This document shows, piece by piece, positions 1,950-20,976 of a DNA stretch of 20,976 bases. The notes below the pieces were generated by a model that worked only from the letters and a program-made list of their open reading frames with translations, ran no database searches and had not been told where the DNA came from. The first letter of the stretch is position 1. Each line of letters opens with the position of its first letter. The translations under genes and the position numbers were made by a program. Source of the DNA: Candidatus Kuenenia stuttgartensis (lineage in GTDB: Bacteria; Planctomycetota; UBA11346); the NCBI GenBank assembly GCA_945872305.1, contig CAMCAC010000025.1:1-20976 (forward strand), given 5' to 3'.

Positions 1950-4900
1950 TCCTCGCCCTCCTCGAAGCAGACCACCTGGCCGGTGCGGATCGGGACGAGC
2001 ACGCGGCCCTCGATCGCCACCGGGGCCGCCACCGCCGGTCCGCCAAGGTCCGCCCGCCAGCGCAGGTGGCCGGTGGCCGGGTCGATGGCGTGGAGCTGGC
2101 CGGCACCATCGGCGGCGTACAGGGCCTTACGCCCCAGGGCGGGGGCGCCGGAGAGGGTGCCCATGGAGCCCTGGGCCGGATAGCGCCAGCGCAACTGGCC
2201 GCTGCGGGTCAGGTCGATGGCGTGGATGCGGCCTTCGGCGGTGGCGGCGAAGGCGGTCCCGCCGACCACCTGGATGCCGACCGGGGCTCCTTCGACCGGC
2301 CAGGCGGCGACCACCCGGCGGCCGTCCGCCACGCCGGTGCCCAGGTCGATGGCCAGGATCTGACCGCTCGCATCGGCCAGGAGCCACACGGACCGTCCGC
2401 CGATCCGGGCCGCGACGGGCTGGCCGACCGCATCGCCGCGGGTGCTGATCTCGCCCAGGGACCTGGCCGGGTTGGCCTCGGTCAGGGTGGTGATGTCGAA
2501 CAGGTGGACGGTGGAGCCGGCGGGGACCGCCAGCACGGTGCGCTCCGCTGAGCGGTCGACGAACGGGGTCGCCGTCACGTCATCCGGCAGGGGGATGCGC
2601 GGGAATCCGGCGACCCGGCCGCGCTCGGTGGAGCCGACCACCTGGATGCCCTGGCCCGCGGCGGCGGCGAACACCAGGGTCTGGTCGTGGACCAGTTCAT
2701 TGCGGTCCACGCACACGAAGCCGGTGAAGCGCAGTCCGGGGCGGCTCGGTTCCGGCCATTGCCAGAGCCGGGACCGGCTTGCCAGATCATACGCCAGGAC
2801 CCGTTCCTCGTGGCCGATGAAGACCCGGCCGTCGCGGATCGCCGGCGGGTGGCGGAACTCGGAGACGGCGTCCTCGATGGCCAGGGGACGGTCCGCCCCG
2901 GTGACCGCGTCGAGGGCGACCAGGCTCGCCCGGTTGGTCCCGAACAGGGCGGTCGTCCCCACCAGGATCGCCGGGGTGGTCACGACGGCGCCCAGCTCCC
3001 GGCGCCAGGCGGGCCCACGGGCCAGGGTGACCGACGCGGTGGTCCGGCGCACCTGGGCGGTGACGACCACGGTCTGGGCTGCGAATCCCGGCCGCACGGC
3101 GGTCACGGAGAGCGTCTCGCCGGGGGCGTAGGTCGCCCGGTGGATCCAGCGGCCGGTGGTCCCCTCGGGGGCCCGGGCGGTCTCGGCGGGGCCGGGGCGG
3201 CCGCCGGTCTGGCTCCGGCTCACGGTGAGGATGGTGCGTGGGGTGTCGACCTGGATGGAGAACGGCAGGGCCAGTCGCGTATACAGGTCCTGCAGCCGGG
3301 GATTGGCGGTCTCGCGCACGAGCTGGGCCAACCGGTCGAGGGATGCGAAGGCATCCTGGTCCTGGCCGCGGTCGGCGGCGGCGACGATCCGTTCGCCCAG
3401 GCGCTCGCCGAGCGCCAGTTCGACCTCGCCCAGACGGACCCGGGCGCGGCTGACCGCGGCCGGCTCGCCGGTGCCGGCGGCGGCCCGCTGGAAGGCGGCC
3501 CGGCCGGACTCGAGGTCGCCGCGGGCCAGGATCCGCTCGGCGCGGGCGGTCAGGGCCTCGGCGGAGGTGTGGTCGGTGGTCCAGCGCAGCCGGGTGGCGG
3601 TCAGGTCGGTGCGCAACTCCGGCGGCAGGTCCTGGCGGTCGAGGATGGGTGCGATCAGGACCAGGGCGCCGTCCCAGTCGTCGGCCTCCCAGCGACGGCG
3701 GGCTTCGCTGTACACGCCGCTCACCTCGATGTCGATCCGCGCCTTGAAGATGCGCTCGCGGAGGGTGGCGGCGTCCGCGGCGGCGCGGGTGCCCGGGAAC
3801 GAGGATTCGAGCCGGCGGACCCCTTCCAGGGCCTTGGCGTACTGGCCGCTGGCGAGCAGCGCATCGGCGCGCTCGGTCTCGATCCGGGCCTGGGCCTCGA
3901 AGTCGCGCTGGATCGACTCGCGCACCTCGGTCACCCGGCTCTGCACGGCCTGGACGCCGCTGTAGGTGCGGGCGGTCTCGTCCAGGGCGGCGATCAGCTT
4001 GGGATGCCCGAGGTCGCCTTTGAGGGTGCGGAAGGCGGTGTTGATGTCGTCGACCTCGGTCAGGCCGTTGCGCTCGAACACCACCTGACGGTAATACTCG
4101 ACGCCGAAGACCGCAGCGATGAGGAGGATCACGCCGGCGGCGATGTAGACGAAGGTGCGGATCGCCCGGCTCGTCTTGACCGACTCGCTGGCCCGGGCGT
4201 GGGCCAGCACCTGGTCCTTCACCGCCTGGTATTTGCAGTCGGCGCCGAGGATGCCTTCGAGCTCCTCAAGGGCCTTGCGCGGGCCGCGGCCGGCGAGCAG
4301 CGCATGCCACAGGGCCTTGTACTCGACCACCGCATTCTCGGTCTGGCCGTCGATGAGGTAGGCGCGGGCGAGGTGGCGGTGCGGGTCCGGGGCACGCGGC
4401 ACCAGGTTCTTGGCCCGGTGGCAGGCGTCGATGGCCCGGGCCGCGTCCTTGGTGCCGAGGAACGACTGGGCGGCCTGGCAGAATGCCTCGGCGGCCTCAT
4501 CCGCGCGGCCGAGGTCGGCCAGGGTGTGGCCGCGGTCGGCGTGCAGCTCCGGATCCTCGGGGGACAGGGCGAGGACGGTGTCGATGTCCGCCAGGGCCTG
4601 TTCCAGCTCGCCGGCGTCCTGGCTGTGCTGGATCAGCTCCAGGTAGATCTCCACCGCGCGCGGCACCTGGTCGGTGGCGGCACAGACCTCGGCCAGGGGG
4701 CGCAGGACCTCGGGGATGCGGGCCTGGCCGAGCGCGACCTCCAGCAGGTCGCGGGCGCGCATGGCCTCGCCGCCCTGGCGCAACGCCACGGCATCCTCGA
4801 CGATCTCCTGGGTGGTGCGCGGGCGGGCGACCTGGGCGAGGACGAGCTGGGCGACGATGGCGAAGGTGTCGAACTGGGTGACCCCGACCTGGCGGGCGAC

Positions 4901-5545
4901 CACGGCCAGGGCGTGGCGGCCATCCAGGTAGCGGACCACCTTGAGCATGTCCGGATCGGTCTGGACGTTCTTGAGGTTGGGGCGGCCTTCATTGTCGACG
5001 ATGAACAGCGTGTTCTCGTCCGGGATGATCTCGCGGATCCGCTTCCATTCATCGCGCCGGCGGGTGGCCTCGAGGATGAGCTGGGTCGTCGGCAGGCGGG
5101 TGGCGCCCATCTCGACCGCATCGAAGCCCTGGAGCTCCGGCGGGATGGGGCCGTCGGCAAAGGAGAACTCGCCTTCGGTCCACTCGAACACCGGGCAGAA
5201 GACCTCCTCGATGCACCAGGCGCAGACTTCGTCGAGGTCGCCATCCGGGATGTAGGCGCTGGCCACGAGCAGGTCGCGCAGGGGCTGGGCGATGGTGCGC
5301 AGGCGGCGGGTCAGCTCCTCGGCCTGGTCGGCGGCCAGCAGGTTGCGCTTGACCAGGGCGTGGATCAGGAACGGCCGCCCATCGACCGGCGGGGCGCTCG
5401 CCGCGGCGATCTGACCCTGATCGAAATGGACGCGCACGGTGCCGGCTGGGCCGGCCACCACCATGGTGCCGGTCTGGCGGTTCATCGCCAGCGTCTGCAC
5501 GATGTCGGTCAGGTTGACGGAAGAGAGTTGGCCCTGGAAACCCAT
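1946..5545 (-). CDS. Large multidomain membrane protein: N-terminal DUF4388 domain, TPR repeats, one TM helix, TPR/coiled-coil region, and a C-terminal PQQ-type beta-propeller
   Basis: 1199-aa ORF. The N-terminus MGFQGQLSSVNLTDIVQTLAMNRQTGTMVV...VRVHFDQGQI matches the DUF4388 consensus (GxLxxFSLxDllQll...kTGtL....g.iyf.nGqiv). TPR-like helical repeats follow (AVEIYLELIQHSQDAGELEQALADIDTVLALSPEDPELHADRGHTLADLGRADEA...). A single hydrophobic segment reads IRTFVYIAAGVILLIAAVFGV. The C-terminal third carries repeated PQQ/BamB-like blades (GQLHAIDPATGHLRWR, GRIHAIDLTRSGQLRWRY, GQILAIDLGTG, RVLAYDLASRSRLWQW). Confidence 0.7.
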   Translation of the reverse strand: MGFQGQLSSVNLTDIVQTLAMNRQTGTMVVAGPAGTVRVHFDQGQIAAASAPPVDGRPFLIHALVKRNLLAADQAEELTRRLRTIAQPLRDLLVASAYIPDGDLDEVCAWCIEEVFCPVFEWTEGEFSFADGPIPPELQGFDAVEMGATRLPTTQLILEATRRRDEWKRIREIIPDENTLFIVDNEGRPNLKNVQTDPDMLKVVRYLDGRHALAVVARQVGVTQFDTFAIVAQLVLAQVARPRTTQEIVEDAVALRQGGEAMRARDLLEVALGQARIPEVLRPLAEVCAATDQVPRAVEIYLELIQHSQDAGELEQALADIDTVLALSPEDPELHADRGHTLADLGRADEAAEAFCQAAQSFLGTKDAARAIDACHRAKNLVPRAPDPHRHLARAYLIDGQTENAVVEYKALWHALLAGRGPRKALEELEGILGADCKYQAVKDQVLAHARASESVKTSRAIRTFVYIAAGVILLIAAVFGVEYYRQVVFERNGLTEVDDINTAFRTLKGDLGHPKLIAALDETARTYSGVQAVQSRVTEVRESIQRDFEAQARIETERADALLASGQYAKALEGVRRLESSFPGTRAAADAATLRERIFKARIDIEVSGVYSEARRRWEADDWDGALVLIAPILDRQDLPPELRTDLTATRLRWTTDHTSAEALTARAERILARGDLESGRAAFQRAAAGTGEPAAVSRARVRLGEVELALGERLGERIVAAADRGQDQDAFASLDRLAQLVRETANPRLQDLYTRLALPFSIQVDTPRTILTVSRSQTGGRPGPAETARAPEGTTGRWIHRATYAPGETLSVTAVRPGFAAQTVVVTAQVRRTTASVTLARGPAWRRELGAVVTTPAILVGTTALFGTNRASLVALDAVTGADRPLAIEDAVSEFRHPPAIRDGRVFIGHEERVLAYDLASRSRLWQWPEPSRPGLRFTGFVCVDRNELVHDQTLVFAAAAGQGIQVVGSTERGRVAGFPRIPLPDDVTATPFVDRSAERTVLAVPAGSTVHLFDITTLTEANPARSLGEISTRGDAVGQPVAARIGGRSVWLLADASGQILAIDLGTGVADGRRVVAAWPVEGAPVGIQVVGGTAFAATAEGRIHAIDLTRSGQLRWRYPAQGSMGTLSGAPALGRKALYAADGAGQLHAIDPATGHLRWRADLGGPAVAAPVAIEGRVLVPIRTGQVVCFEEGEE

Positions 5546-5600
5546 GGTGGGACAAGGCTAGGCAGGGATCCCGCGGTGCCAGCAGGGATCTCGGGGGCCG

Positions 5601-5620
5601 CCCCCGCCGGCGGCCGGGGG
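5601..5620. other. Short GC hairpin just past the permease stop, in the 76-bp gap before the DUF4388 gene ATG
   Basis: cccccg (5601-5606) / loop ccggcggc / cggggg (5615-5620). The adjacent direct repeat cagggatc (5574-5581 and 5583-5590) is also noted. There is no U-tract, so it may simply be an intra-operon structure. Confidence 0.2.
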
Positions 5621-5621
5621 C

Positions 5622-6818
5622 CTATTCGTGGCGCAGGGCCTCGATCGGATCCAGCCGGGCGGCCCGGCGGGCCGGGTACCAGCCGAAGAACAGGCCCACC
5701 GCCACGGATACCGCCAGGGCCATCAGGATCGCGCCGCCCTGGACCACCGGCGGGAACGGCATCACCGCCGCCGCCAGGGCGGTCAGGCCCCACCCGAGGA
5801 GCACGCCCAGGATCCCGCCGGTGCCGGTGACCAGGGCCGCCTCGATGAGGAACTGGCGCCGGATGTCGCGCTCCCGGGCGCCGATGGCCTTGCGCAGGCC
5901 GATCTCCCGGGTCCGTTCGGTCACTGCCACGAGCATGATGTTCATGATCCCGATGCCGCCGACGAGCAGGCTGACCGCGGCGATGCCGGCGAGCAGGGCG
6001 GCGAACACGCCGCTGATCTGGCGCAGTTGGTTCAGGATGTCCTGGTTGCGGTAGATGGCGAAGTCGCGCTGGGCCGGGTCGGCCAGACGGTGGCGGCGGA
6101 GCAGGGTGCGGCCCACCGCCTCCTCGGCGGCTTCGAGCCGCCCGGGCCGGGCGAGGACCTGGATCTGGCCCAGGCGCCCGCCGTCGACCAGCCCGCGGCG
6201 GGCGGCGGCCAGGGGCACGATGGCCATCTCGTCCGGCTCCAGGAAGCCCTGGCGGCCCTGGGCGGCGAGCACGCCCACCACCCGCATGGGGACGGGACCG
6301 ACCAGGACCGTCTGGCCCAGGGGCTCCCGGTCCGGGAACAGCCGGCCGGCGACCGCGGTGCCGAGCACCGCCACCGGGATGCCCAGGTCGCTCTCGCTGG
6401 CGGTGAACAGCCGGCCCCGGGCCACCGGGAGGTCGGTGCAGGCGAAATAGCCGTCGCTGGTGGCGATGACATTCGCGGTGCTCTCCCGGCCGGCACCGCG
6501 CAGGGTCGCCCCGGGCGCCTGCTGGACCGGGGCCACCGCCGCCACCTCGGGGAGGGTGGCGAGGGCCGACGCATCACCGGGATCCAGGCCGCGCACCGCC
6601 CGCGGCCGGCGGCCGTCGCCCCAGTCGTCGAACACGAACATCACCTCGGCGCCTTTGCGGGCGAAGCCCTGCACGAGCCGCTGCTCGGCCCCGGCGCCCA
6701 CCGCGAGCATGGCGATCACCGCCGCCACCCCGATCACCACCCCGGACATGGCGAGCAGGCTGCGCAGGGGATTGCCGCGCAGGCTCTGGACCGCGGTGGA
6801 CAGGAGCATCAGCCACAT
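5622..6818 (-). CDS. ABC transporter permease, FtsX/MacB (DevC/LolC-like) family
   Basis: 398 aa. The N-terminus [29 protein letters not shown] is the MacB-type permease signature, followed by a periplasmic domain. The C-terminal FtsX core reads [40 protein letters not shown] plus terminal TM helices. The start (6818 or 6809) overlaps the upstream ATPase stop (6809-6811). Confidence 0.85.
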
Positions 6819-7516
6819 GGCGGCGCCCCCTCGTCACTGGCGACGAGCCCATCCGCGAGCCGGATCCGACGCGGGCAGCGGGCCGCCACCCCGGGATCGT
6901 GGGTGACGATGACGATGGTCCGGCCCTCGCGGTGCAGTTCCGCGAACAGGCCGAGGATCTCCTCGCCGGTGCGCGAATCGAGGTTGCCGGTGGGCTCGTC
7001 CGCCAGGAGCAGGGCCGGGCTGCCGGCCAGGGCCCGGGCGATGGCGACCCGCTGGCGCTGGCCGCCGCTGAGCTGGTTCGGACGGTGACGCAGGCGGTCG
7101 CCGAGCCCGACCCGGCGCAGGGCCGTCTCGGCCGCCGCCCGCGCATCGGCGCGCCGGGCGTAGCGCAGGGGCAACGCCACATTCTCCACCGCATCCAGGC
7201 GCGGGAGGAGATGAAAACTCTGGAAAATGAAGCCGATCCGCCGGTTGCGGATCGCGGCCAGGCGGTCGCCATGGATCGCGGTGATGTCCTCGCCATCCAG
7301 GCGGTAGGTCCCCGCATCCGGCTTGTCCAGGCAGCCGAGGATGTGCATCAGGGTGGACTTGCCGCTGCCGCTCGCGCCGAGGATCGCCGCCATCTCCCCG
7401 GCCCGGATGCGCACATCGACCCCGGCCAGGGCGTGCACCGTCTCGCCGCCGACGGTGTAGGTCTTGCGCAGGGCGGTGGCGTCGATGACCGGGGCGGCCC
7501 CCGCAGCGTCGCTCAT
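6809..7516 (-). CDS. ABC transporter ATP-binding protein, MacB/LolD/DevA-type nucleotide-binding domain
   Basis: 235 aa with Walker [11 protein letters not shown]-loop, ABC signature [15 protein letters not shown], Walker [13 protein letters not shown] and H-loop VTHD. The ATG at 7516 overlaps the TGA of the membrane-fusion protein gene (ATGA at 7513-7516). Confidence 0.9.
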
Positions 7517-8790
7517 AGGCCGAAATCCATCTCGTCGCGCCAGCGGATCTTGCCCGCGGGGGGCAGTTCCACGGATTCGCCGGCGTCCAGGCCGGAGAGG
7601 ATCTGCTGGCGGCGGCCGTCGGTGCCGCCGACCAGCACGGCCCGGGTCCCGGACGATGCGGCGGCGCTGGCGCTGCGCAGGACCACCTCGGTGCGGCCGT
7701 CGATCCGGCGGACGGCCTCGACCGGGATGGTGATGGCGGCGGCTTCATCAACGGTGGTGATCTCGACCCCGACGGTCATGGGCGGGCGCAGGGGCAGGTC
7801 GGATCCGGCCAGGCGGATGGTCACCGGGAAGCTGACCGATCGCCCCTCGCGCACGCCCTCGCTGGCGATGGCGGCGACCGTGCCCGAAAAGCGCCGGCCC
7901 GGGAACGCTTCGCAGGTGACCACGGTGAGCTGGCCCGGGTGGACCCGGCCCACATCGGATTCCGGCAGATCGACCTGGACCGAGAGCCGGGACAGATCCG
8001 CCAGGGCCGCCACCTGGGTGCCGCCGCCGATGGTGGTGATGCCGGAACTGACGATCTGGCCGACCTCGACCAGGACCCGGGTCACGGTGCCATCCACCGG
8101 GGCGGTGATCCGGGTCTTGGCCAGGCGCCGGCGGGCGTCGTCCAGGTCGAGTTCCCGGCTGCGCAGGTCCGCTTCCGCCAGGGCGAGTTCCGCCTGGGCG
8201 ACGGCGATGTCGGCTCCCCGCAGGGCGGCCTCGTCGATGGCCAGCCGTGCCCCGGCCAGTCCGGCGACCGCGGTGGCTTCGCCGGCGATGGCCGCGTCGG
8301 TGCTCTCGGGGGTGGTCACGCCCTGGCGGAGGAGATCGCGTTGCCGGGCGGCCCGGGTGGCGGATTCCGCAGCCCGGGCCCTGGCCGCGGCCAGTTCCGC
8401 CGCCGCCCGCTCCTGGGCCAGGGCGGTGGCCCGGGTCTCCCGGTCCAGACGCAGGCGGGCCTGGTCGAGCCGGGCCCGGGCGGCGACCACCCCGGCCTCG
8501 GCCCGGGCCACCACCCGGCGCTCGTCGTCGGGATCGAGCTGCACAAGCAGGTCCCCGGCCCGCACCGGCAATCCCGAAGCCGCCGGCACCGCCGCCACCT
8601 GGCCGCTCGCTTCCGCCTTGATCTCCACGCTCTGGGCGCTGACCACCCGGCCGCTGGCGGTGATCGTTTCGATGAAGCGTCCCTGTTCCGCCGTCGCGGT
8701 GGCCACCGGCGGGGGTGGTGGATCCCCGCATCCGGCGACCAGGACCACGGATGCCAGGAGCCAGCGCATGCGGGGAGCGTTCATGCGCAT
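7513..8790 (-). CDS. Efflux periplasmic adaptor (membrane-fusion protein), HlyD/MacA-like lipoprotein
   Basis: The ORF is open to 8859, but the plausible start is 8790 (MRMNAPRMRWLLASVVLVAGC), which gives a lipoprotein signal with an LVAGC lipobox. It has a beta-barrel/lipoyl-like N-domain (FIETITASGRVVSAQSVEIKAEASGQV), a long Ala/Arg-rich alpha-helical hairpin (~130 aa), and a C-terminal beta domain (VTRVLVEVGQIVSSG...). This is the first gene of the MFP-ATPase-permease set. Confidence 0.8.
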   Translation of the reverse strand: MRMNAPRMRWLLASVVLVAGCGDPPPPPVATATAEQGRFIETITASGRVVSAQSVEIKAEASGQVAAVPAASGLPVRAGDLLVQLDPDDERRVVARAEAGVVAARARLDQARLRLDRETRATALAQERAAAELAAARARAAESATRAARQRDLLRQGVTTPESTDAAIAGEATAVAGLAGARLAIDEAALRGADIAVAQAELALAEADLRSRELDLDDARRRLAKTRITAPVDGTVTRVLVEVGQIVSSGITTIGGGTQVAALADLSRLSVQVDLPESDVGRVHPGQLTVVTCEAFPGRRFSGTVAAIASEGVREGRSVSFPVTIRLAGSDLPLRPPMTVGVEITTVDEAAAITIPVEAVRRIDGRTEVVLRSASAAASSGTRAVLVGGTDGRRQQILSGLDAGESVELPPAGKIRWRDEMDFGL

Positions 8791-8885
8791 TCCGGACGCA
8801 CCAGCCCCCGGAAACTGACGATCAAACAGGTATAAGGATATCCGGGCGTTGTTATCCATTATGTTCCGGGCACTGTGGCGGAGCC
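8791..8885. promoter_or_regulatory. Divergent promoter/operator region between the MFP operon (minus) and the NMO-family gene (plus). It is a local low-GC island with a palindromic element.
   Basis: The only AT-rich stretch in this part of the window is ctgacgatcaaacaggtataaggatatccgggcgttgttatccattatgttccggg. It contains the palindrome GGATATCC (8836-8843), GGATA (8836-8840) inverted to TATCC (8853-8857), and a repeated tccggg (8841-8846, 8865-8870). It also carries a TATAAG -10-like hexamer. Confidence 0.35.
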
Positions 8886-10499: not shown

Positions 10500-13400
10500 T
10501 CACTTCCCTGCGGCGAGCAGTTTCCGCATGAAGGTCAGTTCCTCGCGGAAGGCCGCATCGTCCGGGAACGCCTTGACCGCCCGTTCGGCGGCCGTCAGAG
10601 CCCGCTCGTTCGCCCCGACCAGGACGGCCCGCCAGGCGATGAGGAACCACTTCGGCTTGTAGTTCAGCTCCGCCTGCCACACGTCGAGCACGGTGGTGAA
10701 CCATGCGGCCGAGGCCTGGGGGGCGCGGGCGCCGAGGGTGTCCGCGGTCATGTCGCGCAGACGCTTGTCGTTGAGGTCCTTCACCCGGCGCAGGCAGGCC
10801 TGGAGCAGCGCCTTGTCCTCGGTCAGCAGGGCGAGATCGAGGCGGCTCATGTGACGCTGGATCTCGATGCTGGAATCGGTCAGGCCCAGGGCATCGGCCC
10901 GGGTGAAGGCCTCCTCGACCCTGGCGGCGGCGGCGCGCACCTTGCCCAGATCCGCGGTGCCGGCCTTGATCGCGTCGTCGTTGTAGGCGCGCAGCTGCTG
11001 GCCGAACCAGTAGGGGACCGACAGGCGGATCCACGACAGGTCGCGGGCCTGTTGCGCCTCGCCGGGCTGGCGGCGGGAATGGTCGACCTTGCCCGCGGCG
11101 GGCCAGGGGGCCGCGGCGACCGCGGTGGCGACCGCCTCCTCGCCACCCATGGAGCGGGCGAGATGCCGGGCCAGGGCGGCGTAGCGGAAATGGATGTCGC
11201 CCGGGTCTTCGACATCGCTGAAGGCGATCTTGTCGATCCAGGTGGCGGCCCGTTCCTCGGCGGCGCGCACCCCGGCGTCCGAGCGTTCGTGCTCCGGCGC
11301 CTTCTCGACCAGATCCAGGGACAGATCGGCATAGCGGGCGAGCATCTGGCGGAGCAGCATCAGGCCGCCGGTGTCGTTCACCCAGCGCTCGCGGAAGCGG
11401 GCGTTGCCGAGCATGGCCACGACCTTGCCCATCTGCTCATCCAGCGGTGCCGCGGTCTGCTCCAGGATCGCCGCCGCCGAGGCGGACAGGCCGAGCTGGG
11501 ACGCCTGGCCGGCAAGATCGAAACCGTACTCGACCATGCCCTGGCCCATCGCCGCGGCGAGTTCCGGATCCTGGAGGCGGGCGATCTCCTCGCCGATCAG
11601 GGTGCGCGCGCGGGCGTCGTCCTTGGCCTCGCGCAGAAGCCCGATCAGTTCAACGCGGCGCAGGGCCAGGGATTGCGCATCGTCGATCCCGGTCATCGCC
11701 TTTTCGAAATATTCCACGGCCTTGCCGTATTGGCCGGTGAAATGGTACAGGCCGCTCAGCTCCGTGATGTTGGCGGGATCGAGATCGCCGCCGTCGACCA
11801 GCTTCTGCATCTTGGCGATGCCGCGGGCATAGGTCTGGTACTGCCAGTCGCGTTGCACATCGATCATGATCCGGGCGTATTCGGGCTCGGCGAAGATCCG
11901 CCAGCCGAGCCGCCAGGCCCCGCGGGTGTTCTCGCCGGAGAAGCGCAGGAGCAGGCCCAGCCCGTTGGGGTCGAACGGCGCGTTGGGATTGAAGTGGGTG
12001 AAGGCGGCGCGCAGGGCCTCGGGCAGGGTCTCGCGCACGAAGTGCAGGGTCGGACCGGTCTGCATCACGGTCACCGACCAGCCCTCGGCGGCCTTGGTGG
12101 CGGTCGCGAAGGCGGTGTGGCTGGGCAGGGTGAGCAGGTGGCCGAGCCGGCCCTGCCGCTCGGCCACGGTCTGGTACAGTTCCCCGAGGTCGTCGCAGTC
12201 GCCGCGGCAGGCGCCGAGGGTGTTGCTGGTCAGGATCTGCTCGGTGGTCTGGTGGATGTCGCTCTTGACCGTCTTGTTGCCGGCCAGGAGCGGGAAGCGC
12301 GGATCCGGGCTGTCGTAGGTGTAGCGGAAGAAATATTGGCCGAGCAGGTCCAGCCGACCCAGGCTGTCGAGGATGCGCGCGCTGTCGGCGAGGAACCGCC
12401 CCGCCTCGGCGGAGGTCCCGTCGCGCATGGCGCGCAGGGTCCCGGTCTCGACCGCCAGGAAGAGGGGATCGCCGGCGGGGCTGGCGACCAGGATGTGCGG
12501 CGGGTACAGGTCCGGCAGATCGGTGTCGTCGGGACGGGGTACCGCCTTGCGCCAGGTCTTGGCGTCGACCGTCAGCCCCTTGTCCCGGGTCCACGAGGCC
12601 AGGCGTGTGCCGCTGCGATCGAAGACCCGGGCGGCCACCGCCTTGGCGGCGTCGCGGTCGGGGTCCGATCCGGCGGGCAGATCCACGGTCAGGACCAGAT
12701 TGAGCGGGGAATTGTAGAAAGGCTCCGGATGGGCGATCCGGTAGGCGGTGCGGGAGGGGGCGTTCAGCACCCATACCCCGCCGCCGAAGGCGTCACGACG
12801 GTCCTCGATGGTGATCTTGCCGTCTGCGCTCGCGTGGCCCGACGCGGGGCCGCGGCGCATCGCCGCGGCCACCGCCGCTTCGACCGCTGCGGTCTCGGCC
12901 CCGGCCTGGGGCAGGGTGGCAAGCCAGCCGCCGCGGACGAGGCGGCGGGCCGCCGCCGGGGTGTATTCGTCCAACGGCCTGGCCCGGTCCTTTTCCGGCA
13001 GCAGGTCGAGGGTGGCGACGATCGCGTCCCGGGTCCGCCGTTCGATGGTTCCCGCCGCCACATCCTTGTCGATACGCGCGGTGAGCGCGGCCACCGCCTT
13101 GGCCACCGCGGCGAGGTCCTTGCCGCGGTCGGTTTCGGCATTGGGCATGGCCCGGAGCAGGCCCTCCTCGATGGCGAGCCATTCCTTGCTCGCCAGGGTC
13201 AGCCCGGCCAGGGGGGACATCTGCAGGGCGGCGGTGCCGCTCGCCTTGCCGGCCTCGGCCTGGGCGACCAGCCGGGCCAGGGCCTTTGCGGCGGCGGCGT
13301 CCTGGGCCAGGGCCTTGTTCACCGTCACCGGGCCGACCGGGGTCGCCACGGTCAGGTGCTCCCCGGGCACCCAGGGATAGCCGCCCCAGGTCCAACCGCT

Positions 13401-13541
13401 CTCGGATGTGACCAGGGCCTGGGCCAGGGCGGCGGGCGGCTTGACCGGGGTCGCACCCTGGTCGGCGGTGGACGGCTCGGCACCGGGCAGGGCGCAGGCG
13501 ATGGCGAGCAGGGCGGGGACGAGACGGTGCATGGTGGGCAT
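10500..13541 (-). CDS. Large secreted hypothetical protein (~1013 aa) with a signal peptide, a central region containing a possible transglutaminase-like Cys/His core, and a TPR-like helical C-terminal region
   Basis: The ORF is open to 13739, but MPTMHRLVPALLAIACALPGAEP at 13541 is a classical signal peptide. Amino-acid composition is diverse (K, F, Y, W present), unlike the Gly/Arg-rich antisense frame. The central segment GACRGDCDDLGELYQTVAERQGRLGHLLTLPSHTAF loosely fits the transglutaminase-like core. The C-terminal 450 aa are alpha-helical repeat-like. Confidence 0.55.
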   Translation of the reverse strand: MPTMHRLVPALLAIACALPGAEPSTADQGATPVKPPAALAQALVTSESGWTWGGYPWVPGEHLTVATPVGPVTVNKALAQDAAAAKALARLVAQAEAGKASGTAALQMSPLAGLTLASKEWLAIEEGLLRAMPNAETDRGKDLAAVAKAVAALTARIDKDVAAGTIERRTRDAIVATLDLLPEKDRARPLDEYTPAAARRLVRGGWLATLPQAGAETAAVEAAVAAAMRRGPASGHASADGKITIEDRRDAFGGGVWVLNAPSRTAYRIAHPEPFYNSPLNLVLTVDLPAGSDPDRDAAKAVAARVFDRSGTRLASWTRDKGLTVDAKTWRKAVPRPDDTDLPDLYPPHILVASPAGDPLFLAVETGTLRAMRDGTSAEAGRFLADSARILDSLGRLDLLGQYFFRYTYDSPDPRFPLLAGNKTVKSDIHQTTEQILTSNTLGACRGDCDDLGELYQTVAERQGRLGHLLTLPSHTAFATATKAAEGWSVTVMQTGPTLHFVRETLPEALRAAFTHFNPNAPFDPNGLGLLLRFSGENTRGAWRLGWRIFAEPEYARIMIDVQRDWQYQTYARGIAKMQKLVDGGDLDPANITELSGLYHFTGQYGKAVEYFEKAMTGIDDAQSLALRRVELIGLLREAKDDARARTLIGEEIARLQDPELAAAMGQGMVEYGFDLAGQASQLGLSASAAAILEQTAAPLDEQMGKVVAMLGNARFRERWVNDTGGLMLLRQMLARYADLSLDLVEKAPEHERSDAGVRAAEERAATWIDKIAFSDVEDPGDIHFRYAALARHLARSMGGEEAVATAVAAAPWPAAGKVDHSRRQPGEAQQARDLSWIRLSVPYWFGQQLRAYNDDAIKAGTADLGKVRAAAARVEEAFTRADALGLTDSSIEIQRHMSRLDLALLTEDKALLQACLRRVKDLNDKRLRDMTADTLGARAPQASAAWFTTVLDVWQAELNYKPKWFLIAWRAVLVGANERALTAAERAVKAFPDDAAFREELTFMRKLLAAGK

Positions 13542-13671
13542 AGTGTCGACCTGGGCGCGGCGTCGATAGCCCATCCCTGCACGCCTGCGTGTGGTCCGGC
13601 AGACAGTTCCCCGCGGCCGCTGCGTCGCGGTGCCGGCTGGACGCCGCCCGGTGGGCAGGAGGATCCCGCCC
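13542..13671. promoter_or_regulatory. Divergent intergenic region (secreted-protein gene on minus, nadE on plus) containing the nadE ribosome-binding site
   Basis: AGGAGG at 13656-13661 lies 10 nt upstream of the nadE ATG (13672). This is the presumed location of divergent promoters. Confidence 0.5.
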
Positions 13672-15437: not shown

Positions 15438-16208
15438 ATGGATCACCTCCTCACCGCCCTCAGCGCCTTCCCGACCGTGGTGTTCACCACCCTGCTTGCC
15501 GCAGCGGTGGTGTACTGGCTGCTGGTCATCCTCGGGGCGCTGGACCTGGACCTGTTCCACCTGGGCGATGCGGACGCCGGTGATCATGATCCGCACGCCG
15601 GCCACAACGGGTTCGCCATCCTGGAGTTCCTCCGGGTGGGGCAGGTGCCGATCACGGTGATCTCGAGCCTGTTCATCGTCTTCGCCTGGCTCGCCAGTTT
15701 CGCCGCCACGATGTTCCTTCGGCCGGTGGTGCCGGAGTGGTCGTGGTGGCTGTTCGGCGGGGCGACCCTGGTGGGGGCCATCGTGGTCGCCTACCTGGGC
15801 ACCGGCTTCGTCAGCGCGGGTCTTGCCCGGGTATTCTCCATCCGCGGGACGGTCACCGCCGCGAGCCTGGTCGGCCGGGTCGTGGAGGTCACCTCGTCCA
15901 CGGTGGACGCCCGGTATGGCACCGCCCGTCACGACCGGTTGACCGGTGAGGACATCCTCCTCAACGTGGTCTGCGATCCCGCCCACACCCTGAAGCGCGG
16001 CGACCAGGCGGTCATCATGGAATACGATGCCGGCAAGGGTGTGTACCTGATCGCGCCCCTGCCCCACACCCGGGAGGGCTTCGCCGTCGAGGCGGAGCCG
16101 CGCCCGGCCCTGCCGCCCCCGGCGGGCGCCGCCGAGCCCGTCGCCCCGCCCGTCGACACTCCCGCCCCGGCCGCCGCCCCCGGCCGCCGCGACACCCTCG
16201 CCCAATGA
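15438..16208 (+). CDS. yqiJ: YqiJ-like inner-membrane protein (DUF1449) with a C-terminal NfeD-like OB-fold
   Basis: 256 aa. It has N-terminal TM helices with an acidic/His-rich loop (LDLDLFHLGDADAGDHDPHAGH), further TM helices, and a C-terminal beta-rich domain (GRVVEVTSSTVDARYGTARHDRLTGEDILLNVVCDPAHTLKRGDQAVIMEYDAGKGVYLIA) that matches the layout of E. coli YqiJ. The stop overlaps the flotillin gene ATG (ATGA at 16205-16208). Confidence 0.75.
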   Translation: MDHLLTALSAFPTVVFTTLLAAAVVYWLLVILGALDLDLFHLGDADAGDHDPHAGHNGFAILEFLRVGQVPITVISSLFIVFAWLASFAATMFLRPVVPEWSWWLFGGATLVGAIVVAYLGTGFVSAGLARVFSIRGTVTAASLVGRVVEVTSSTVDARYGTARHDRLTGEDILLNVVCDPAHTLKRGDQAVIMEYDAGKGVYLIAPLPHTREGFAVEAEPRPALPPPAGAAEPVAPPVDTPAPAAAPGRRDTLAQ

Positions 16209-18490
16209 CCACCGGAGATCCCATGCTGCCCCGCCTGCTCCCCGTCCCCGTCCTGCTGGTCCTGTCGGCCGGCGTCACCGTCTTCGCCGAGGACGCCGCC
16301 GCCGGCGGCTCCCGCGACGGGTGGCTCTACATCCTCGTTGGTGGGGGTGTCCTCGTCCTCCTGGTGCTGTTCGTCGCCGCGGTGATCAAGGCCTTCTACC
16401 GCATGGTCGACCAGGGCCAGGTGCTGATCATCAACAAGCTGACCAGCGGCGAGCCGGCGGTGAGCTTCACCGGCGCCCTGGTCCTGCCGATCGTCAACCG
16501 CGCCGAGACCATGGACATCTCGGTGAAGACCATCGAGGTGGACCGCCAGGGCACCAACGGCCTGATCTGCCGCGACAACATCCGGGCCGACATCAAGGTC
16601 ACCTTCTTCGTCCGGGTCAACAAGACCCACGAGGACGTGGTCCGGGTGGCGAGCACCGTCGGCGTGGCCCGGGCCTCGGACCGCAAGACCCTGGAGGACC
16701 TGTTCCAGGCGAAGTTCTCGGAAGCCCTCAAGACCGTCGGCAAGCGCCTGGACTTCATCCAACTCTACAACGAGCGGGATCAGTTCAAAGAGGAGATCAT
16801 CAAGGTGATCGGCCGCGATCTGAACGGTTACTGCCTGGAGGACGTTGCGATCGACTACCTGGAGCAGACCCCGCTCAAGCTGCTCGACCCGGACAACATC
16901 CTCGATGCCGAAGGTCGCAAGAAGATCATCGAACTGACCGCGTCCCAGCGGATGAAGGCCAACGAGATCGAGCGCGACGCCCAGAAGATCATCAAGAAGC
17001 AGGACGTGGAGGCCCGCGAGGCGATCCTCGCCCTTGAGCGCCAGCAGGCCGAGGCCGAGGCCAAGCAGGCCCGGGAGATCGGCACCGCCCAGGCCCGGGA
17101 ATCCGCGGAGAAGACCAAGGTCGAGGCCGAGGAGCACCGCCGGTCCGAGGAGACCCGCATCCAGGTCCAGCAGGAGTTGGAGGTGAAGCGGCAGATGGCC
17201 CAGCGCGAGATCCAGGTCGCCGAGAAGAACCGCGAGGGCGCGGTCATGGTCGAGAACGAGCGCATCCAGAAGGAGCGCATGCTGGAGCAGGTCGCCCGCG
17301 AGCGTGCGGTCGAACTGTCGGGCATCGAGCGCGAGCGGGTCATCGCCCAGGAGCGCAAGATCATCGCCGAGGTGATCCGCGAGCGGGTCGCCGTCGAGCG
17401 CACCGTGGCCGAGGAAGAAGAGCGCATCAAGACCGTCCGGGTGGTCATGGAGGCCCAGCGGAACAAGGACGCCGCCCTGATCGCCGCCGAGCAGGAGGCC
17501 GAGCAGGTCCGCATCAAGGAAGTGAAGCTCGCCGAGGCCGCCGCCACCGCCGCGACGCACCACGCCAAGGAGAAGGTCACCAAGGCCGAGGCCGAGCAGC
17601 TCGCCGCCGAGAAGGAGACCCTGGCGGCGATCCGCCGGGCCGAAGGCGAGCAGGCCAAGGCCGCCGCCCAGGGCTTGGCCGCCGCCAAGGTCAAGGAGGC
17701 CGACGCGGTCGCCGCCGAGAAGCAGGGCACCGTCGAGGCCCGGGTGATGGAGGCCAAGGCCGAAGCGGAGCGCAAGATGGGCATGGCCCAGGCCTCCGTC
17801 CACCTGGCGGAGCGCGAGGCCGAAGCCGCCGGCGCCGAGAAGATCGGCACCGTCGAGGCCCGGGTGATGGAGGCCAAGGCCGAGGCGGAGAAGAAGCGCG
17901 GCATGGCCCAGGTCGCGGTCAAGCAGGCCGAGGCCGACGCGGTCGAGCGCATGGGCGAGGCCGACGCGAGCGCGGTGGAGAACAAGATGGTGGCCGAGTC
18001 CAAGGGTCTCGCCGAGAAGGCCGGGGCCATGGCCAAGCTCACCGATGCCACCCGTGGGCACGAGGAGTTCCGGCTCCGCCTGGAGCAGGAGTCGGCGATC
18101 CGCAAGGCGGCCATCGAAGCCGAGGTCCAGATCGCCGGCACCCGCGCCGAGATCCTGGGCAAGAGCCTGGGCAACGCCAAGTTCGAGATCGTCGGCGGCG
18201 ACGGGGCGTTCTTCGACCGCTTCGTCGGTGCGGTCACCGACGGCAAGCGGGTCGATGCCACCATCGACCACAGCCACGTCCTCCAGACCGTGGCCAAGGA
18301 GTACCTCGCCGACGGCCGCAGCCTGCCGGACGACATCAAGGAGATCCTCTCCGGCATCACCAGCCAGGATCTCGCCAACCTCGGCATCGCCGGGGTCCTG
18401 GCCAAGGTCACCGCCGGCAAGGACCCGGTGAAGGTGAAGGCCCTGACGGACGCGGCGCGCAAGCTCGGATTGATCACGGAGCCGACGTGA
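16205..18490 (+). CDS. yqiK: Flotillin-like SPFH/band-7 protein (YqiK/FloT family) with an expanded Glu/Ala-rich coiled coil
   Basis: 761 aa. It has an N-terminal TM segment and an SPFH domain with direct resemblance to E. coli YqiK (DNIRADIKVTFFVRVNKT ~ DRMRVDVVVAFFVRVKPS; DPDNILDAEGRKKIIELT ~ NPNNAFDAEGLTKLTQET). A long EA-repeat coiled coil follows (residues ~240-640), then a flotillin C-terminal region. An alternative start lies at 16223 (MLPRLLPVPVLL). Confidence 0.85.
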   Translation: MTTGDPMLPRLLPVPVLLVLSAGVTVFAEDAAAGGSRDGWLYILVGGGVLVLLVLFVAAVIKAFYRMVDQGQVLIINKLTSGEPAVSFTGALVLPIVNRAETMDISVKTIEVDRQGTNGLICRDNIRADIKVTFFVRVNKTHEDVVRVASTVGVARASDRKTLEDLFQAKFSEALKTVGKRLDFIQLYNERDQFKEEIIKVIGRDLNGYCLEDVAIDYLEQTPLKLLDPDNILDAEGRKKIIELTASQRMKANEIERDAQKIIKKQDVEAREAILALERQQAEAEAKQAREIGTAQARESAEKTKVEAEEHRRSEETRIQVQQELEVKRQMAQREIQVAEKNREGAVMVENERIQKERMLEQVARERAVELSGIERERVIAQERKIIAEVIRERVAVERTVAEEEERIKTVRVVMEAQRNKDAALIAAEQEAEQVRIKEVKLAEAAATAATHHAKEKVTKAEAEQLAAEKETLAAIRRAEGEQAKAAAQGLAAAKVKEADAVAAEKQGTVEARVMEAKAEAERKMGMAQASVHLAEREAEAAGAEKIGTVEARVMEAKAEAEKKRGMAQVAVKQAEADAVERMGEADASAVENKMVAESKGLAEKAGAMAKLTDATRGHEEFRLRLEQESAIRKAAIEAEVQIAGTRAEILGKSLGNAKFEIVGGDGAFFDRFVGAVTDGKRVDATIDHSHVLQTVAKEYLADGRSLPDDIKEILSGITSQDLANLGIAGVLAKVTAGKDPVKVKALTDAARKLGLITEPT
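17714..17912 (+). repeat. Intragenic tandem duplication (two ~79-bp copies, period 120 bp, ~88% identical) encoding a 40-aa coiled-coil repeat in the flotillin gene
   Basis: 17714-17792 (gccgagaagcagggcaccgtcgaggcccgggtgatggaggccaaggccgaagcggagcgcaagatgggcatggcccagg) versus 17834-17912 (gccgagaagatcggcaccgtcgaggcccgggtgatggaggccaaggccgaggcggagaagaagcgcggcatggcccagg). Protein copies: AEKQGTVEARVMEAKAEAERKMGMAQ / AEKIGTVEARVMEAKAEAEKKRGMAQ. Confidence 0.85.
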
Positions 18491-18497
18491 ACGTCGG
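18482..18497. other. Perfect palindrome CCGACGT-GA-ACGTCGG spanning the flotillin stop codon
   Basis: ccgacgt (18482-18488), ga, acgtcgg (18491-18497). The central TGA is the yqiK stop. It could form a 6-bp GC stem with a TGAA tetraloop and lies immediately 5' of the G-rich heptad array. Confidence 0.5.
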
Positions 18498-18682
18498 GGT
18501 TCCGGGTTTGGGGTTTCGGGTTTCGGGACGGTGGGTTCCGGGTTTCTGGAGAGCGATGAGATGAACGCCATGGCAGCGGAAACTCTGTGGACCCTGTGCA
18601 TTCGCAGGTCACTTCCGCACCTCCGTCCCTCCCTCCCGAAACCCGAAACCCGAAACCCGAAACCCAGGTTCCCGAACCCACC
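18497..18682. repeat. Inverted arrays of GGGTTTC-type heptads flanking an ~80-nt spacer. The left arm is G-rich on the + strand (G3N4 x5) and the right arm is C-rich on the + strand (C3N4 x5). This gives a potential long stem-loop or paired G-quadruplex / i-motif elements.
   Basis: Left arm 18497-18549: gggttccgggtttggggtttcgggtttcgggacggtgggttccgggtttctgg. Right arm 18631-18682: ccctcccgaaacccgaaacccgaaacccgaaacccaggttcccgaacccacc, largely the reverse complement of the left arm (gggtttcgggtttcggg / cccgaaacccgaaaccc; ggtgggttccggg / cccgaacccacc). It sits in the 190-bp gap between the flotillin stop (18490) and the ATG of the next gene (18683). Confidence 0.8.
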
Positions 18683-20976
18683 ATGACGCTCGATGCAGGA
18701 ACTTTCGACGTTGTCCGCGCCCGGCTCGACGAGCAGGGCAAGGCTCTGGGCGGGCTGGCGGAGCGGCTGAACGCCCGGCGGCTGGAGCTGTTCGGGGGCG
18801 AGAGCACCCGGCTGCTCGGCAGCGCCCGGGTGCGCACCGAGCACAACGCGGTGCCCCGGGACATCGTCAATGTCGGCGACCGCTTCCTGCTCGGCTACCA
18901 GGTGTTCCTCGGGCTGAAGGCGCAGATGGCGCCGGGCGACGTGTTCACCGAGCTGCGCGACGACGGGCAGGGGGTGGTGAATCTGGATCCGGAGCATCCG
19001 CCGCGGCTGCTCGGGGATCCGGCATTCACCAAGGACTTCGCCGAGGTCTTCCAGTACTACAAGGACGCCCGGCTGCTCCATTTCCGGCGCACCGACCGGC
19101 TGCTGTTGGCGGCGTTCCAGACCGGCTCCCGGCTCACCGACCTGCGGGTGCTGCGCTGGGCCCTGGACGGGCGCGGTGCGGCGGAGGGGCTGCGCTACCT
19201 CGACAACCGCGGCGACCGCGACTACGTGTTCCCCGCGGCCCAGGATTTCACCTGGACCCGGGCGACCCGGGACATGCATGTCCAGGGCGCCCATCCGCAC
19301 ATCGCCATCGACGACGAGATCTTCGTCGAATGCATCAACGGCGACCTGACCATCAAGGTCGAGAACAACACGACCTCCGGCGCCGGCATCTTCAGCGATC
19401 CGGTCGACGATCCGACCCAGGGCCTGGACGACGCCGAGATCTGGTTCGCGGTCCTGCCCGCCTGCATCCTGCTCAAGGTGCGGCCGTACCGGGAGCACGG
19501 CTGGCGCCACATCGTCTTCAACCGCGCCACCCGCGAGGCGGTGCGCATCGACGCGATTGGACTGGCGTGCCAGCAGCTCCCCGAAGGCCACGGGCTGGTC
19601 TTCCCCGGCGGCTATTATCTGTCCACCGGCGTGCACAAACTGTTCCCCATCGACGCCGCGGGGATGGAGTTCAAGCGCGCCATCCGCGCCCCGAACGGCG
19701 AGGATGTGGCCTATGTCTTCTACCGCCGGGACCAGGGCACCTACCAGCTCCTCCAGTACAGCCTGATCACCCGGGAGATGGCGAGCCCGGTGGTGTGCTC
19801 GTCCTACTGCCGCCTGCCGGACGGCCGGCTGGTGGTGCTGCGGGCGGAGCCGGAGCCGACCCGGGTCCACACGCTCCAGATCTGGCAGACGCCCTTCCTC
19901 GACGAGGAAGTGGCGGCGGCCCGGGCCCCGACCGCCGCCGGGGAACTCGCCAACCTGGGCAACCGGGAGCTGGTGCGGGCGGTGTCGGACTGCCTGCATC
20001 TCTGCCGCCTGATCGGCGCCCAGCGCCCGACCCGGCAGGTGTACGAGGAGTTGCTCAAGGCCATCGGCAAGGTGGTGGACACCTATCCGTGGCTCGCCGG
20101 GACCGAGGGTTTCGGCATCCGCGCCGCCCTGGACGCCCTGCGCGGCACCGCCGAGCGGGTCATCGACGAGTTCGAGAAGGTCGTCGCCCTCACCGCCCAG
20201 GCGGAGGCCAAGCTGGTCGCCGCCGAAAAGCAGGCGGACGCCCTGGCCAAGGCCGCCGCCCTGGCGGACCGGGCCCGGATCGAGGGCTTCGTCGCGCCCT
20301 TGAGCGAGGTGCGCTCCGCCCGCGGCCACGCGGAGACCCTGAAATCCGTCCGCTACATGGACCTCGCCCGGCTCGCCCGGCTCGATGCGCGGCTCGCCCG
20401 GCAGGGCGAGGAATTGGCCAAGGGCGCCGTCGAGCTGCTGCGCAAGCCCGAGGCCCTGGCCGCCTGGAAGGCGGAGATCGCCGCGGTCGAAGCGAGCGCC
20501 GCCGGCCTGGCCGCGGTGGCCGAGGCCCGCCCGGTCTTGGAACGGCTCGACGCCGCCGCCGCCGGCCTGGACCAGCTCGTGGGGCTGGTCAACGCCCTGG
20601 AATTCGCCGAGGCCGCCGCCCGGACCGAGGTCCTGGAGCGCATCGGCGAGACCTACGCCAGCGTCAACCGCGCCCGGGCGGTGCTCGCCGGCCGGCGCCA
20701 GGAGCTCGGCGCCGCCGAGGCCGCCGCGGACTTCGCGGTCCAGGACCGTCTGCTCGCCCAGGCCCTGGCCAATGCCGTGGCCCTGTGCGACAGCCCCGAG
20801 CGCTGCGACGAGTTCACCGCCAAGCTGCTGGTCCAGGTCGAGGAGTTGGAGGGCCGTTTCGCGGACTTCGACCGCTACGCCTCGGAACTGGCCGAACGCC
20901 GGGTCGCGGTCACCGAGCAGCTCGCGTCCCGGCGCCAGGCGCTGGTCGACGAGCGCAGCCGCAAGGCGGACGGCTG
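18683..20976 (+). CDS. Large uncharacterised protein (at least 764 aa, 3' end outside the window) with a globular N-terminal region (~500 aa) and an Ala/Glu/Leu-rich coiled-coil C-terminal region
   Basis: This ORF is not in the supplied track because it has no stop codon in the window. It reads uninterrupted from the ATG at 18683 to 20976 with high GC3 codon usage. No signal peptide or P-loop is recognisable. The strongly recognisable flotillin gene makes the antisense 1466-aa frame an artefact. It is co-oriented with, and 190 bp downstream of, yqiJ-yqiK. Confidence 0.6.
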   Translation, partial: MTLDAGTFDVVRARLDEQGKALGGLAERLNARRLELFGGESTRLLGSARVRTEHNAVPRDIVNVGDRFLLGYQVFLGLKAQMAPGDVFTELRDDGQGVVNLDPEHPPRLLGDPAFTKDFAEVFQYYKDARLLHFRRTDRLLLAAFQTGSRLTDLRVLRWALDGRGAAEGLRYLDNRGDRDYVFPAAQDFTWTRATRDMHVQGAHPHIAIDDEIFVECINGDLTIKVENNTTSGAGIFSDPVDDPTQGLDDAEIWFAVLPACILLKVRPYREHGWRHIVFNRATREAVRIDAIGLACQQLPEGHGLVFPGGYYLSTGVHKLFPIDAAGMEFKRAIRAPNGEDVAYVFYRRDQGTYQLLQYSLITREMASPVVCSSYCRLPDGRLVVLRAEPEPTRVHTLQIWQTPFLDEEVAAARAPTAAGELANLGNRELVRAVSDCLHLCRLIGAQRPTRQVYEELLKAIGKVVDTYPWLAGTEGFGIRAALDALRGTAERVIDEFEKVVALTAQAEAKLVAAEKQADALAKAAALADRARIEGFVAPLSEVRSARGHAETLKSVRYMDLARLARLDARLARQGEELAKGAVELLRKPEALAAWKAEIAAVEASAAGLAAVAEARPVLERLDAAAAGLDQLVGLVNALEFAEAAARTEVLERIGETYASVNRARAVLAGRRQELGAAEAAADFAVQDRLLAQALANAVALCDSPERCDEFTAKLLVQVEELEGRFADFDRYASELAERRVAVTEQLASRRQALVDERSRKADG

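Follow-up and report, generated by a model that had tools for sequence, protein, structure and literature searches.

Partnerships between SPFH oligomers and AAA+ machines are recurrent, HflK/C-FtsH and the complex of prohibitin and the m-AAA protease being examples. The pairing of the SPFH2 flotillins YqiK/YuaG with the short NfeD proteins YqiJ/YuaF is likewise established (Hinderhofer et al. 2009; PMC2636767), and in B. subtilis (yuaF-yuaG, the latter also called floT) as in E. coli (yqiJ-yqiK) the gene for a multi-transmembrane protein with an oligonucleotide/oligosaccharide-binding fold (OB-fold) lies directly upstream of a gene for a transmembrane-anchored SPFH and coiled-coil protein. Ravi et al. 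(2024, mSystems; PMC11237479) described an operon containing CesT/Tir, PspA, flotillin, AAA+ and three-transmembrane YqiJ/YuaF genes, sometimes with a phospholipase D (PLD) hydrolase gene, reported a wider distribution for abbreviated operons that lack PspA, and proposed roles in membrane dynamics and in the chaperone-like assembly of membrane complexes. A 2025 review (PMC7619361) notes that a Vps4-like ATPase appears to be absent in bacteria and that the roles of the Band-7 partners of PspA are undetermined. Here, we analyzed a stretch of 20,976 nucleotides (nt) assigned to Candidatus Kuenenia stuttgartensis (assembly GCA_945872305.1, contig CAMCAC010000025.1), referred to below as the window, in which three consecutive co-oriented genes, A, B and C, occupy positions 15438-20976 on the + strand. 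A sequence-only reading of this DNA had proposed a novel association between a flotillin pair and the large protein encoded by gene C. The link between flotillin and an AAA+ protein has already been described computationally by Ravi et al., and the window holds one more orthologue; our contribution is corroboration, through quantified two-way synteny and structure models, and not discovery.

All three components of A-B-C, with matching domain architecture, are present in the operon of Ravi et al. Its full version is matched gene for gene by a Pseudomonas locus in our comparison set (L070; DUF2170/CesT-like, PspA, YqiJ-like, flotillin, AAA+ and PLD genes). The window carries the abbreviated form, given that no PspA or CesT/Tir gene was found in the 15 kb upstream of the locus or in about 2.3 kb downstream of gene C in a second assembly of the region. 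The paper does not use the name DUF3686 for its AAA+ family; we infer that the two families are the same from their matching architecture and context. The E. coli yqiJ-yqiK locus differs in having no third gene (yqiK is followed by sibD/ibsD and no C-like gene lies downstream), and gene B is about 200 amino acids (aa) longer than YqiK. Gene A is too divergent from YqiJ for BLASTP or Pfam to relate them, and gene B falls under the Band_7 and Flot thresholds. A-B-C very probably represents a three-gene operon type found in many bacterial phyla, in which A is YqiJ/NfeD-like, B is a YqiK-type flotillin and C is a soluble AAA+ protein of about 1740 aa. In this genome, the three genes are likely co-transcribed. 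The features of the locus are as follows.

15438-16208, + strand: gene A, a distant member of the YqiJ/YuaF (short NfeD) family; 256 aa, three transmembrane helices and a C-terminal OB-fold
16205-18490, + strand: gene B, a YqiK-type flotillin (SPFH); 761 aa, hydrophobic N-terminal anchors, SPFH, a Glu/Ala-rich helical region and a globular C-terminal tail
18494-18679, no strand: intercistronic imperfect inverted repeat with GGGTTTC / GAAACCC heptamer arms and a unique loop of about 91 nt
18683-20976, + strand: gene C, the first 764 of 1739 residues of a DUF3686/DUF7902 AAA+ ATPase, open to the window end
18752-20086, + strand: DUF3686 domain of gene C, residues 24-468 (Pfam PF12458)
20450-20704, + strand: DUF7902 helical domain of gene C, residues 590-674 (Pfam PF25472)

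Synteny and boundaries of the three-gene locus

The conservation of gene order was assessed from both ends of the locus. From the C side, we used 80 loci from a genome scan with a C alignment (at least 597 such loci exist, and the 80 are the most similar ones rather than a random sample) plus 3 obtained via protein look-ups; together they span at least seven phyla (Planctomycetota, Actinomycetota, Myxococcota, Acidobacteriota, Eremiobacterota, Pseudomonadota and Bacteroidota). Of the 79 loci whose upstream DNA is long enough, 78 have a B homologue immediately before C on the same strand, and most of these have an A homologue before B. From the B side, four B homologues of 52-63% identity were picked regardless of genomic context, and all four are flanked by an A-like gene on the upstream side and by a DUF3686 gene on the downstream side. 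The downstream gene had been suggested as a possible third component of the flotillin pair, and the synteny from both directions bears this out. The gaps between B and C cluster between -8 and 218 nt, so that the 192 nt of the window is at the long end but within range, and in 24 loci the B stop overlaps the C start by 4 nt, an arrangement suggestive of translational coupling in those genomes. Gene A sits directly upstream of the SPFH gene with a stop/start overlap, and the A-B order is kept in most loci. Flotillin pairs thus occur without C, as in E. coli, and C almost never occurs without B, a pattern that fits an accessory protein acting on or with flotillin.

The operon is longer in gammaproteobacterial and Bacteroidota loci, where PspA and a CesT/Tir-like gene are added to it, and Pseudomonas also has the PLD hydrolase gene; PspA and CesT/Tir (DUF2170) genes next to the operon were found only in L003, L056 and L070. 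Several loci show further peculiarities. In Hymenobacter taeanensis (L003, 4077-9908), the order is CesT/Tir-like, PspA, A-like, an extra bPH_4 gene, B-like, DUF559 and C, and in this record C is separated from its AAA part. In Phytohabitans rumicis (L002, 14894-21282), genes of the dynamin-like GTPase, IniB-like and HSP70 families, which are membrane-stress-associated, adjoin the operon, and B and C are each split into two open reading frames (ORFs) in the record. In one Planctomycetota genome (L208, 10375-11407), B and C are intact but have a gene for an IS200/IS605 Y1 transposase and an ORF of 176 aa inserted between them.

The G+C content of the window is 72%, and long ORFs therefore occur on both strands. 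An antisense ORF of 1466 aa (15929-20329, - strand) covers the whole of B together with the end of A and most of what the window holds of C. We rejected it as a high-G+C artefact, and its presence means that ORF length alone proves nothing in this window. The + strand ORFs were accepted as genes on the basis of homology, with gene C matching DUF3686 at an E value of 2.4e-173 and gene B matching YqiK at 2e-39. The ATG of gene B overlaps the TGA of gene A (ATGA); a gene caller prefers the alternative start at ATG 16223, which would give a protein of 755 aa. Gene C starts with ATG at 18683 and continues for 764 codons with no stop before the window end at 20976, so the coordinates given by the sequence-only reading for this ORF of at least 764 aa, and for the spacer at 18491-18682, were correct. 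The remainder of the gene was recovered from L085 (European Nucleotide Archive ERZ27280294, k141_2522696; 35 kb), an independent assembly of the window region that is 99.897% identical to the window over 15,539 nt with zero gaps; the nearest relatives are Planctomycetota metagenome-assembled genomes (MAGs) at 80-81% identity. In L085, the ORF is intact and encodes the complete protein of 1739 aa. Gene C is followed there by a convergent ABC-ATPase gene and then by an RNase D-like gene, so that the unit comprises A, B and C, and the upstream neighbor of the operon is NadE; these neighbors were judged to be housekeeping genes. The observations that could have undone the proposed association did not appear: the neighbors of gene C are conserved in other genomes, the ORF is uninterrupted in the second assembly, and no terminator signature was found in the spacer.

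Domain architecture of the three proteins

The assignment of gene A to the NfeD proteins is supported by remote-homology evidence. Its protein is 100% identical to a database protein, has no Pfam match even at E ≤ 10 and shows no BLASTP similarity to E. coli YqiJ. A profile of the gene A family did align with YqiJ (hhalign; 90.5% probability, E 1.3e-6), and among 30 relatives 6 match YqiJ_N and 1 matches NfeD in Pfam. Three hydrophobic segments form the N-terminal multi-pass transmembrane region expected of the YqiJ/YuaF family. In the AlphaFold2 (AF2) model, with a predicted local distance difference test (pLDDT) score of 81, helices occupy residues 13-34, 72-97 and 100-133, followed by a five-strand barrel at residues 148-207 (pLDDT above 90) of the NfeD OB-fold type. 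The best three Foldseek matches in the Protein Data Bank (PDB) are all NfeD proteins, YbbJ (8z5g), YuaF (2k14) and PH1510-C (3wwv), with template-modelling scores of 0.63 to 2k14 and 0.69 to 3wwv at marginal E values of 3e-3 to 2e-2. Together with the YqiK homology of gene B, these results uphold the description of the pair as NfeD-like plus flotillin.

Gene B aligns with E. coli YqiK by BLASTP over 485 aa at 28% identity (E 2e-39), covering the transmembrane and SPFH regions, and its family profile matches YqiK with 99.9% probability in hhalign. Pfam gave no match for the protein, and the Band_7 threshold, which it did not reach, was reached by only 6 of 30 relatives; the NCBIfam model FloT scored 2.5e-5, far under its cut-off, and a PDB sequence search returned no matches. 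The Flot domain (PF15975) is found in YqiK at 6e-41 and was not detected at E ≤ 0.01 in gene B or the 30 relatives, and the hhalign alignment stops at YqiK residue 439, barely inside the Flot domain of YqiK. We regard gene B, which is homologous to YqiK and misses the Pfam thresholds, as a member of a divergent flotillin subfamily; in the sources, its relatives are called "uncharacterized membrane protein YqiK" or "flotillin family protein". Residues 240-620 (A 22%, E 19%, K 9%, L 4%, Pro 0%) align with the coiled coil of YqiK, and the bulk of the protein lies C-terminal to its N-terminal anchor. A tandem duplication (17696-17792 / 17816-17912; period 120 nt, 85.6% DNA identity) encodes two copies of AEK.GTVEARVMEAKAEAE..GMAQ within the coiled-coil region and partly accounts for the greater length of gene B relative to YqiK.

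The N-terminal region of gene C, about 500 aa long, had been read as globular and without recognizable motifs. The absence of motifs does not hold, given that Pfam identifies DUF3686 (PF12458) at residues 24-468 (E 2.4e-173, with 577 bits where the cut-off is 25) and DUF7902 (PF25472) at residues 590-674 (E 1.3e-20, with 73.8 bits where the cut-off is 26). An AF2 model of this part, built from 18 sequences (mean pLDDT 87), comprises an N-terminal helix at residues 6-37, a beta-rich region at 43-402 and an all-helical region at 408-763. On this model, DUF3686 is a beta-propeller: its span takes in part of helix 6-37, the propeller at 43-402 and the first post-propeller helices at 408-467. Foldseek matched only generic propellers in the PDB (Kelch, WD40 and prolyl-oligopeptidase), which is uninformative on function. 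The helical region has about ten helices (DSSP on the AF2 model), with residues 479-763 modelled as eight helices with breaks, the longest of 49 and 58 residues. The composition of this region had been said to mirror the flotillin coiled coil, a likeness that is superficial: residues 471-764 of gene C contain 25% A, 13% L, 11% R and 11% E, as against 4% L and 19% E in residues 240-620 of gene B.

The absence of a P-loop noted in the sequence-only reading is correct for the part of gene C inside the window and fails for the full protein. The complete sequence has Walker A (PPGYGKT) at residue 1277 (L085 17071-17088, residues 1276-1281) and Walker B (MLYLDD) at residues 1340-1345 (L085 17263-17280), both beyond the window end, and full-length orthologues have an AAA/AAA_5 match near residues 1275-1400. 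In 23 diverse family sequences, GYGKTT, DD, a sensor-1-like Asn and several Arg residues are invariant. From its N-terminus to its C-terminus, the protein has a helix, a beta-propeller, a helical region, about 500 uncharacterized residues, a single AAA+ module and a helical tail. A profile of the AAA+ region against the PDB found its best solved relatives in the protein-remodelling classical AAA ATPases Rix7/NVL and p97/Cdc48, and a PDB sequence search with the full-length protein found no matches. No convincing transmembrane segment was found in gene C, and, since the bulk of gene B lies beyond its N-terminal anchor, both proteins would be cytoplasmic. The family is large, with 909 clusters (50% identity, E ≤ 1e-3) among 1.84 billion representatives, and orthologues range from 1468 to 2126 aa with a median near 1680. 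The window and L085 differ at 16 positions, 11 of them in gene C. Seven of these cluster within 48 nt (18982-19029; residues 100-116 of the propeller) and include P107T, G111A and T116S, which may mark a variable surface patch or strain microdiversity; codon 432 encodes R in the window and W in L085.

The B-C spacer and surrounding genes

The spacer between genes B and C (18491-18682) contains two 39-nt arms (18497-18535 and 18627-18665) that are 90% complementary, are built of GGGTTTC / GAAACCC heptamers and enclose a unique loop of 91 nt. The predicted RNA fold has a free energy of -102.4 kcal/mol (z -5.4). This element had been described as a G-quadruplex (G4) repeat, and the G4 consensus is indeed matched at 18496-18520 on the + strand and at 18627-18651 and 18656-18679 on the - strand; a hairpin is the better description because both arms are mutually complementary. 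The 3' arm is followed by CCCAGGTTCCCGAACCCACCATG, in which there is no T-tract of the kind that marks an intrinsic terminator, and a scan of the spacer found neither a T-tract terminator nor a sigma-70 promoter-like site. The only Rfam matches, to plant microRNA hairpins, scored far under the thresholds (38.6 versus 168 bits and 24.8 versus 137 bits) and were dismissed as generic long-hairpin matches.

The hairpin element is not conserved: it is missing from the closest orthologue (L004, 80% identical), where the gap between B and C is 1 nt. This junction seems to gain and lose repeat-armed hairpins: a related Planctomycetota MAG (L001, 8397-8504) has a different one made of short tandem units (GCCAAGG/CCTTGGC), and L006 has a short hairpin. 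We found no further copy of the heptamer motif in the window, in L085 or in 83 related loci. When metagenomes were scanned for (CCCGAAA)3CCC, at least 120 contigs were recovered; 117 of them carry the heptamer repeat with no opposite-strand copy within 350 nt, and most are lower in G+C than the window. The sole confirmed analogue (L158, 2455-2640; Ga0163153_10025602, 67% G+C) has the same heptamer arms around an unrelated loop and lies between a co-oriented cysD-like gene (1539-2456) and a cysN-like GTPase gene, which are functionally coupled. A dispersed family of the repetitive extragenic palindrome or miniature inverted-repeat transposable element type is therefore unsupported by the scan. 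The spacer is probably a lineage-specific intercistronic insertion outside the conserved system, and its hairpin may, at most, modulate the ratio of B to C expression or mRNA stability.

Elsewhere in the window, the - strand encodes a MacB-type ABC exporter within 1946-8859, with an HlyD-like adaptor (7513-8859), an ABC ATPase (6809-7516) and a MacB permease (5622-6818), followed by a 1199-aa protein with PatA_N (DUF4388), TPR and PQQ-propeller domains (1946-5545, - strand). An uncharacterized gene of 1024 aa (10500-13574, - strand) with only faint TPR matches in Pfam lies between a nitronate-monooxygenase-like gene and nadE.

Possible functions of the AAA+ protein

We tentatively propose that the protein encoded by gene C uses ATP to remodel flotillin assemblies on the cytoplasmic side of the membrane, a reading that we hold to be possible and somewhat short of probable. 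The gene B protein would be anchored by its N-terminus and would assemble with the gene A protein into a flotillin/SPFH oligomer at the cytoplasmic face of the inner membrane. The gene C protein would be recruited to this assembly, through physical contact with B, by its propeller or its helical region, and, during membrane stress or membrane repair, would use ATP to build the flotillin scaffold, take it apart or change its shape. Recruitment and remodelling are suggested by the recurrent partnerships between SPFH proteins and AAA+ machines and by the PspA neighbors in some lineages, and the pairing of an ATPase with a scaffold would be analogous to that of Vps4 with ESCRT-III. Like Vps4 in its association with ESCRT-III/PspA, gene C encodes a putatively classical-type AAA+ protein genetically linked to a membrane-shaping polymer, and PspA adjoins the operon in some lineages; unlike Vps4, it has no MIT domain and has a single divergent AAA module. 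A narrower and more doubtful form of the proposal is that the protein is a dedicated ATP-driven assembly and disassembly factor of bacterial flotillin (SPFH) cages, and of PspA where pspA is adjacent, and thus the functional counterpart of Vps4. The HflK/C-FtsH and prohibitin-m-AAA systems also combine an SPFH oligomer with a membrane AAA+ machine, a resemblance that extends only to how the systems might work. In contrast to FtsH and the m-AAA protease, gene C lacks both a transmembrane segment and an M41 protease domain, includes a propeller as well as long helical regions, and shows no homology to these ATPases detectable past the P-loop.

Several observations weigh against the remodeller proposal. 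The Walker B motif of the family ends in an invariant Asp-Asp (LYLDDIQH) rather than Asp-Glu in the 23 members, and no aromatic pore-loop motif was seen by eye between Walker A and Walker B in the consensus; substrate threading therefore may not apply to this protein. The match to classical AAA ATPases is limited to about 35-65 residues around Walker A, with E values of 1e-5 to 5e-4. In one locus (L083), C occurs without A or B and has a divergent GH114/amidase gene upstream. The very stable hairpin predicted between B and C could terminate transcription, and terminators without U-tracts are usable by high-G+C bacteria. The choice of flotillin itself, rather than client proteins, as the target of the ATPase is one that we infer, and the literature searched contained no experimental work on any member of the gene C family.

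The main rival, which we consider rather unlikely, takes up the question of the target. Here the flotillin/NfeD platform would do no more than recruit or cage the gene C protein, the propeller would pick membrane or membrane-proximal clients, and the ATPase would extract, unfold or assemble them, in the manner of HflK/C-FtsH or erlin-p97 quality control minus the protease domain. This reading draws on the same synteny and architecture, beta-propellers typically recognize substrates or partners, the closest AAA relatives of the protein are unfoldases or segregases, and the chaperone-like assembly proposed by Ravi et al. (PMC11237479) points the same way. However, the protein has no protease or other effector domain, the Asp-Asp Walker B and the lack of an evident canonical aromatic pore loop argue against client processing, and the operon holds no conserved client gene, with flanking genes varying between loci. 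A role in conflict or abortive infection, with the propeller sensing an invader or membrane damage, the ATPase switching on and flotillin/NfeD (with PLD in some genomes) damaging or sealing the membrane, would draw on the PLD (HKD) hydrolase appended in Pseudomonas, on the Fic, S24-helix-turn-helix and DUF559 genes near the Hymenobacter locus and on the IS200/IS605 transposase inserted at one locus. It appears improbable, given that PADLOC returned no match for A, B or C, that the neighbors here are of the housekeeping type (NadE; ABC ATPase, RNase D-like) and that the operon looks vertically conserved in large clades rather than patchy.

It is still less probable that A-B and C are merely adjacent in this genome, with the hairpin terminating transcription and C transcribed alone and independently of A and B. 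The 192-nt spacer, at the long end of the B-C gaps, and its predicted hairpin of -102 kcal/mol would fit such an arrangement, but 78 of 79 loci keep the gene order, often with a 4-nt overlap, the gap is 1 nt in L004 (80% identical), and no T-tract or promoter-like site was found in the spacer. Moreover, the L158 hairpin with the same kind of arms lies between cysD- and cysN-like genes, which encode two subunits of one enzyme. The passive scaffold or cargo protein suggested by the sequence-only reading, a non-enzymatic coiled coil of flotillin microdomains, would agree with the in-window part of gene C, which has no P-loop and whose second half is helical and rich in Ala, Glu and Leu. We find it scarcely credible for the complete protein, which has a conserved AAA+ module whose Walker A and Walker B residues are invariant and, in the model, several broken helices instead of one continuous helix. 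Equally remote is the DNA repair ATPase implied by the PGAP name of the family, "DNA repair ATPase", and by the Pfam description. Apart from the database name, it could call on a weak similarity to RuvB_N/RuvB P-loops; against it, no DNA-binding, nuclease or SMC/Rad50-type domain was detected in gene C, and the gene is near-obligately linked to two membrane-protein genes. The literature searched yielded nothing on DUF3686 or PF12458 and no link between flotillin and a "DNA repair ATPase". This annotation appears to be a misnomer.

In summary, the remodeller proposal bears on a broader problem, given that the function of bacterial flotillins, and the way in which large SPFH assemblies are built up and taken down, are unsettled. 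The correction of the name "DNA repair ATPase" in genome annotation would itself be of practical value. Because a giant AAA+ ATPase is tightly linked, across many phyla, to a distinct subfamily of flotillins and to the NfeD partner of that subfamily, the ATPase is an obvious candidate for the missing remodelling activity. If gene C does encode a remodeller of flotillin cages, it would provide a defined, testable energy source for the dynamics of flotillin microdomains.

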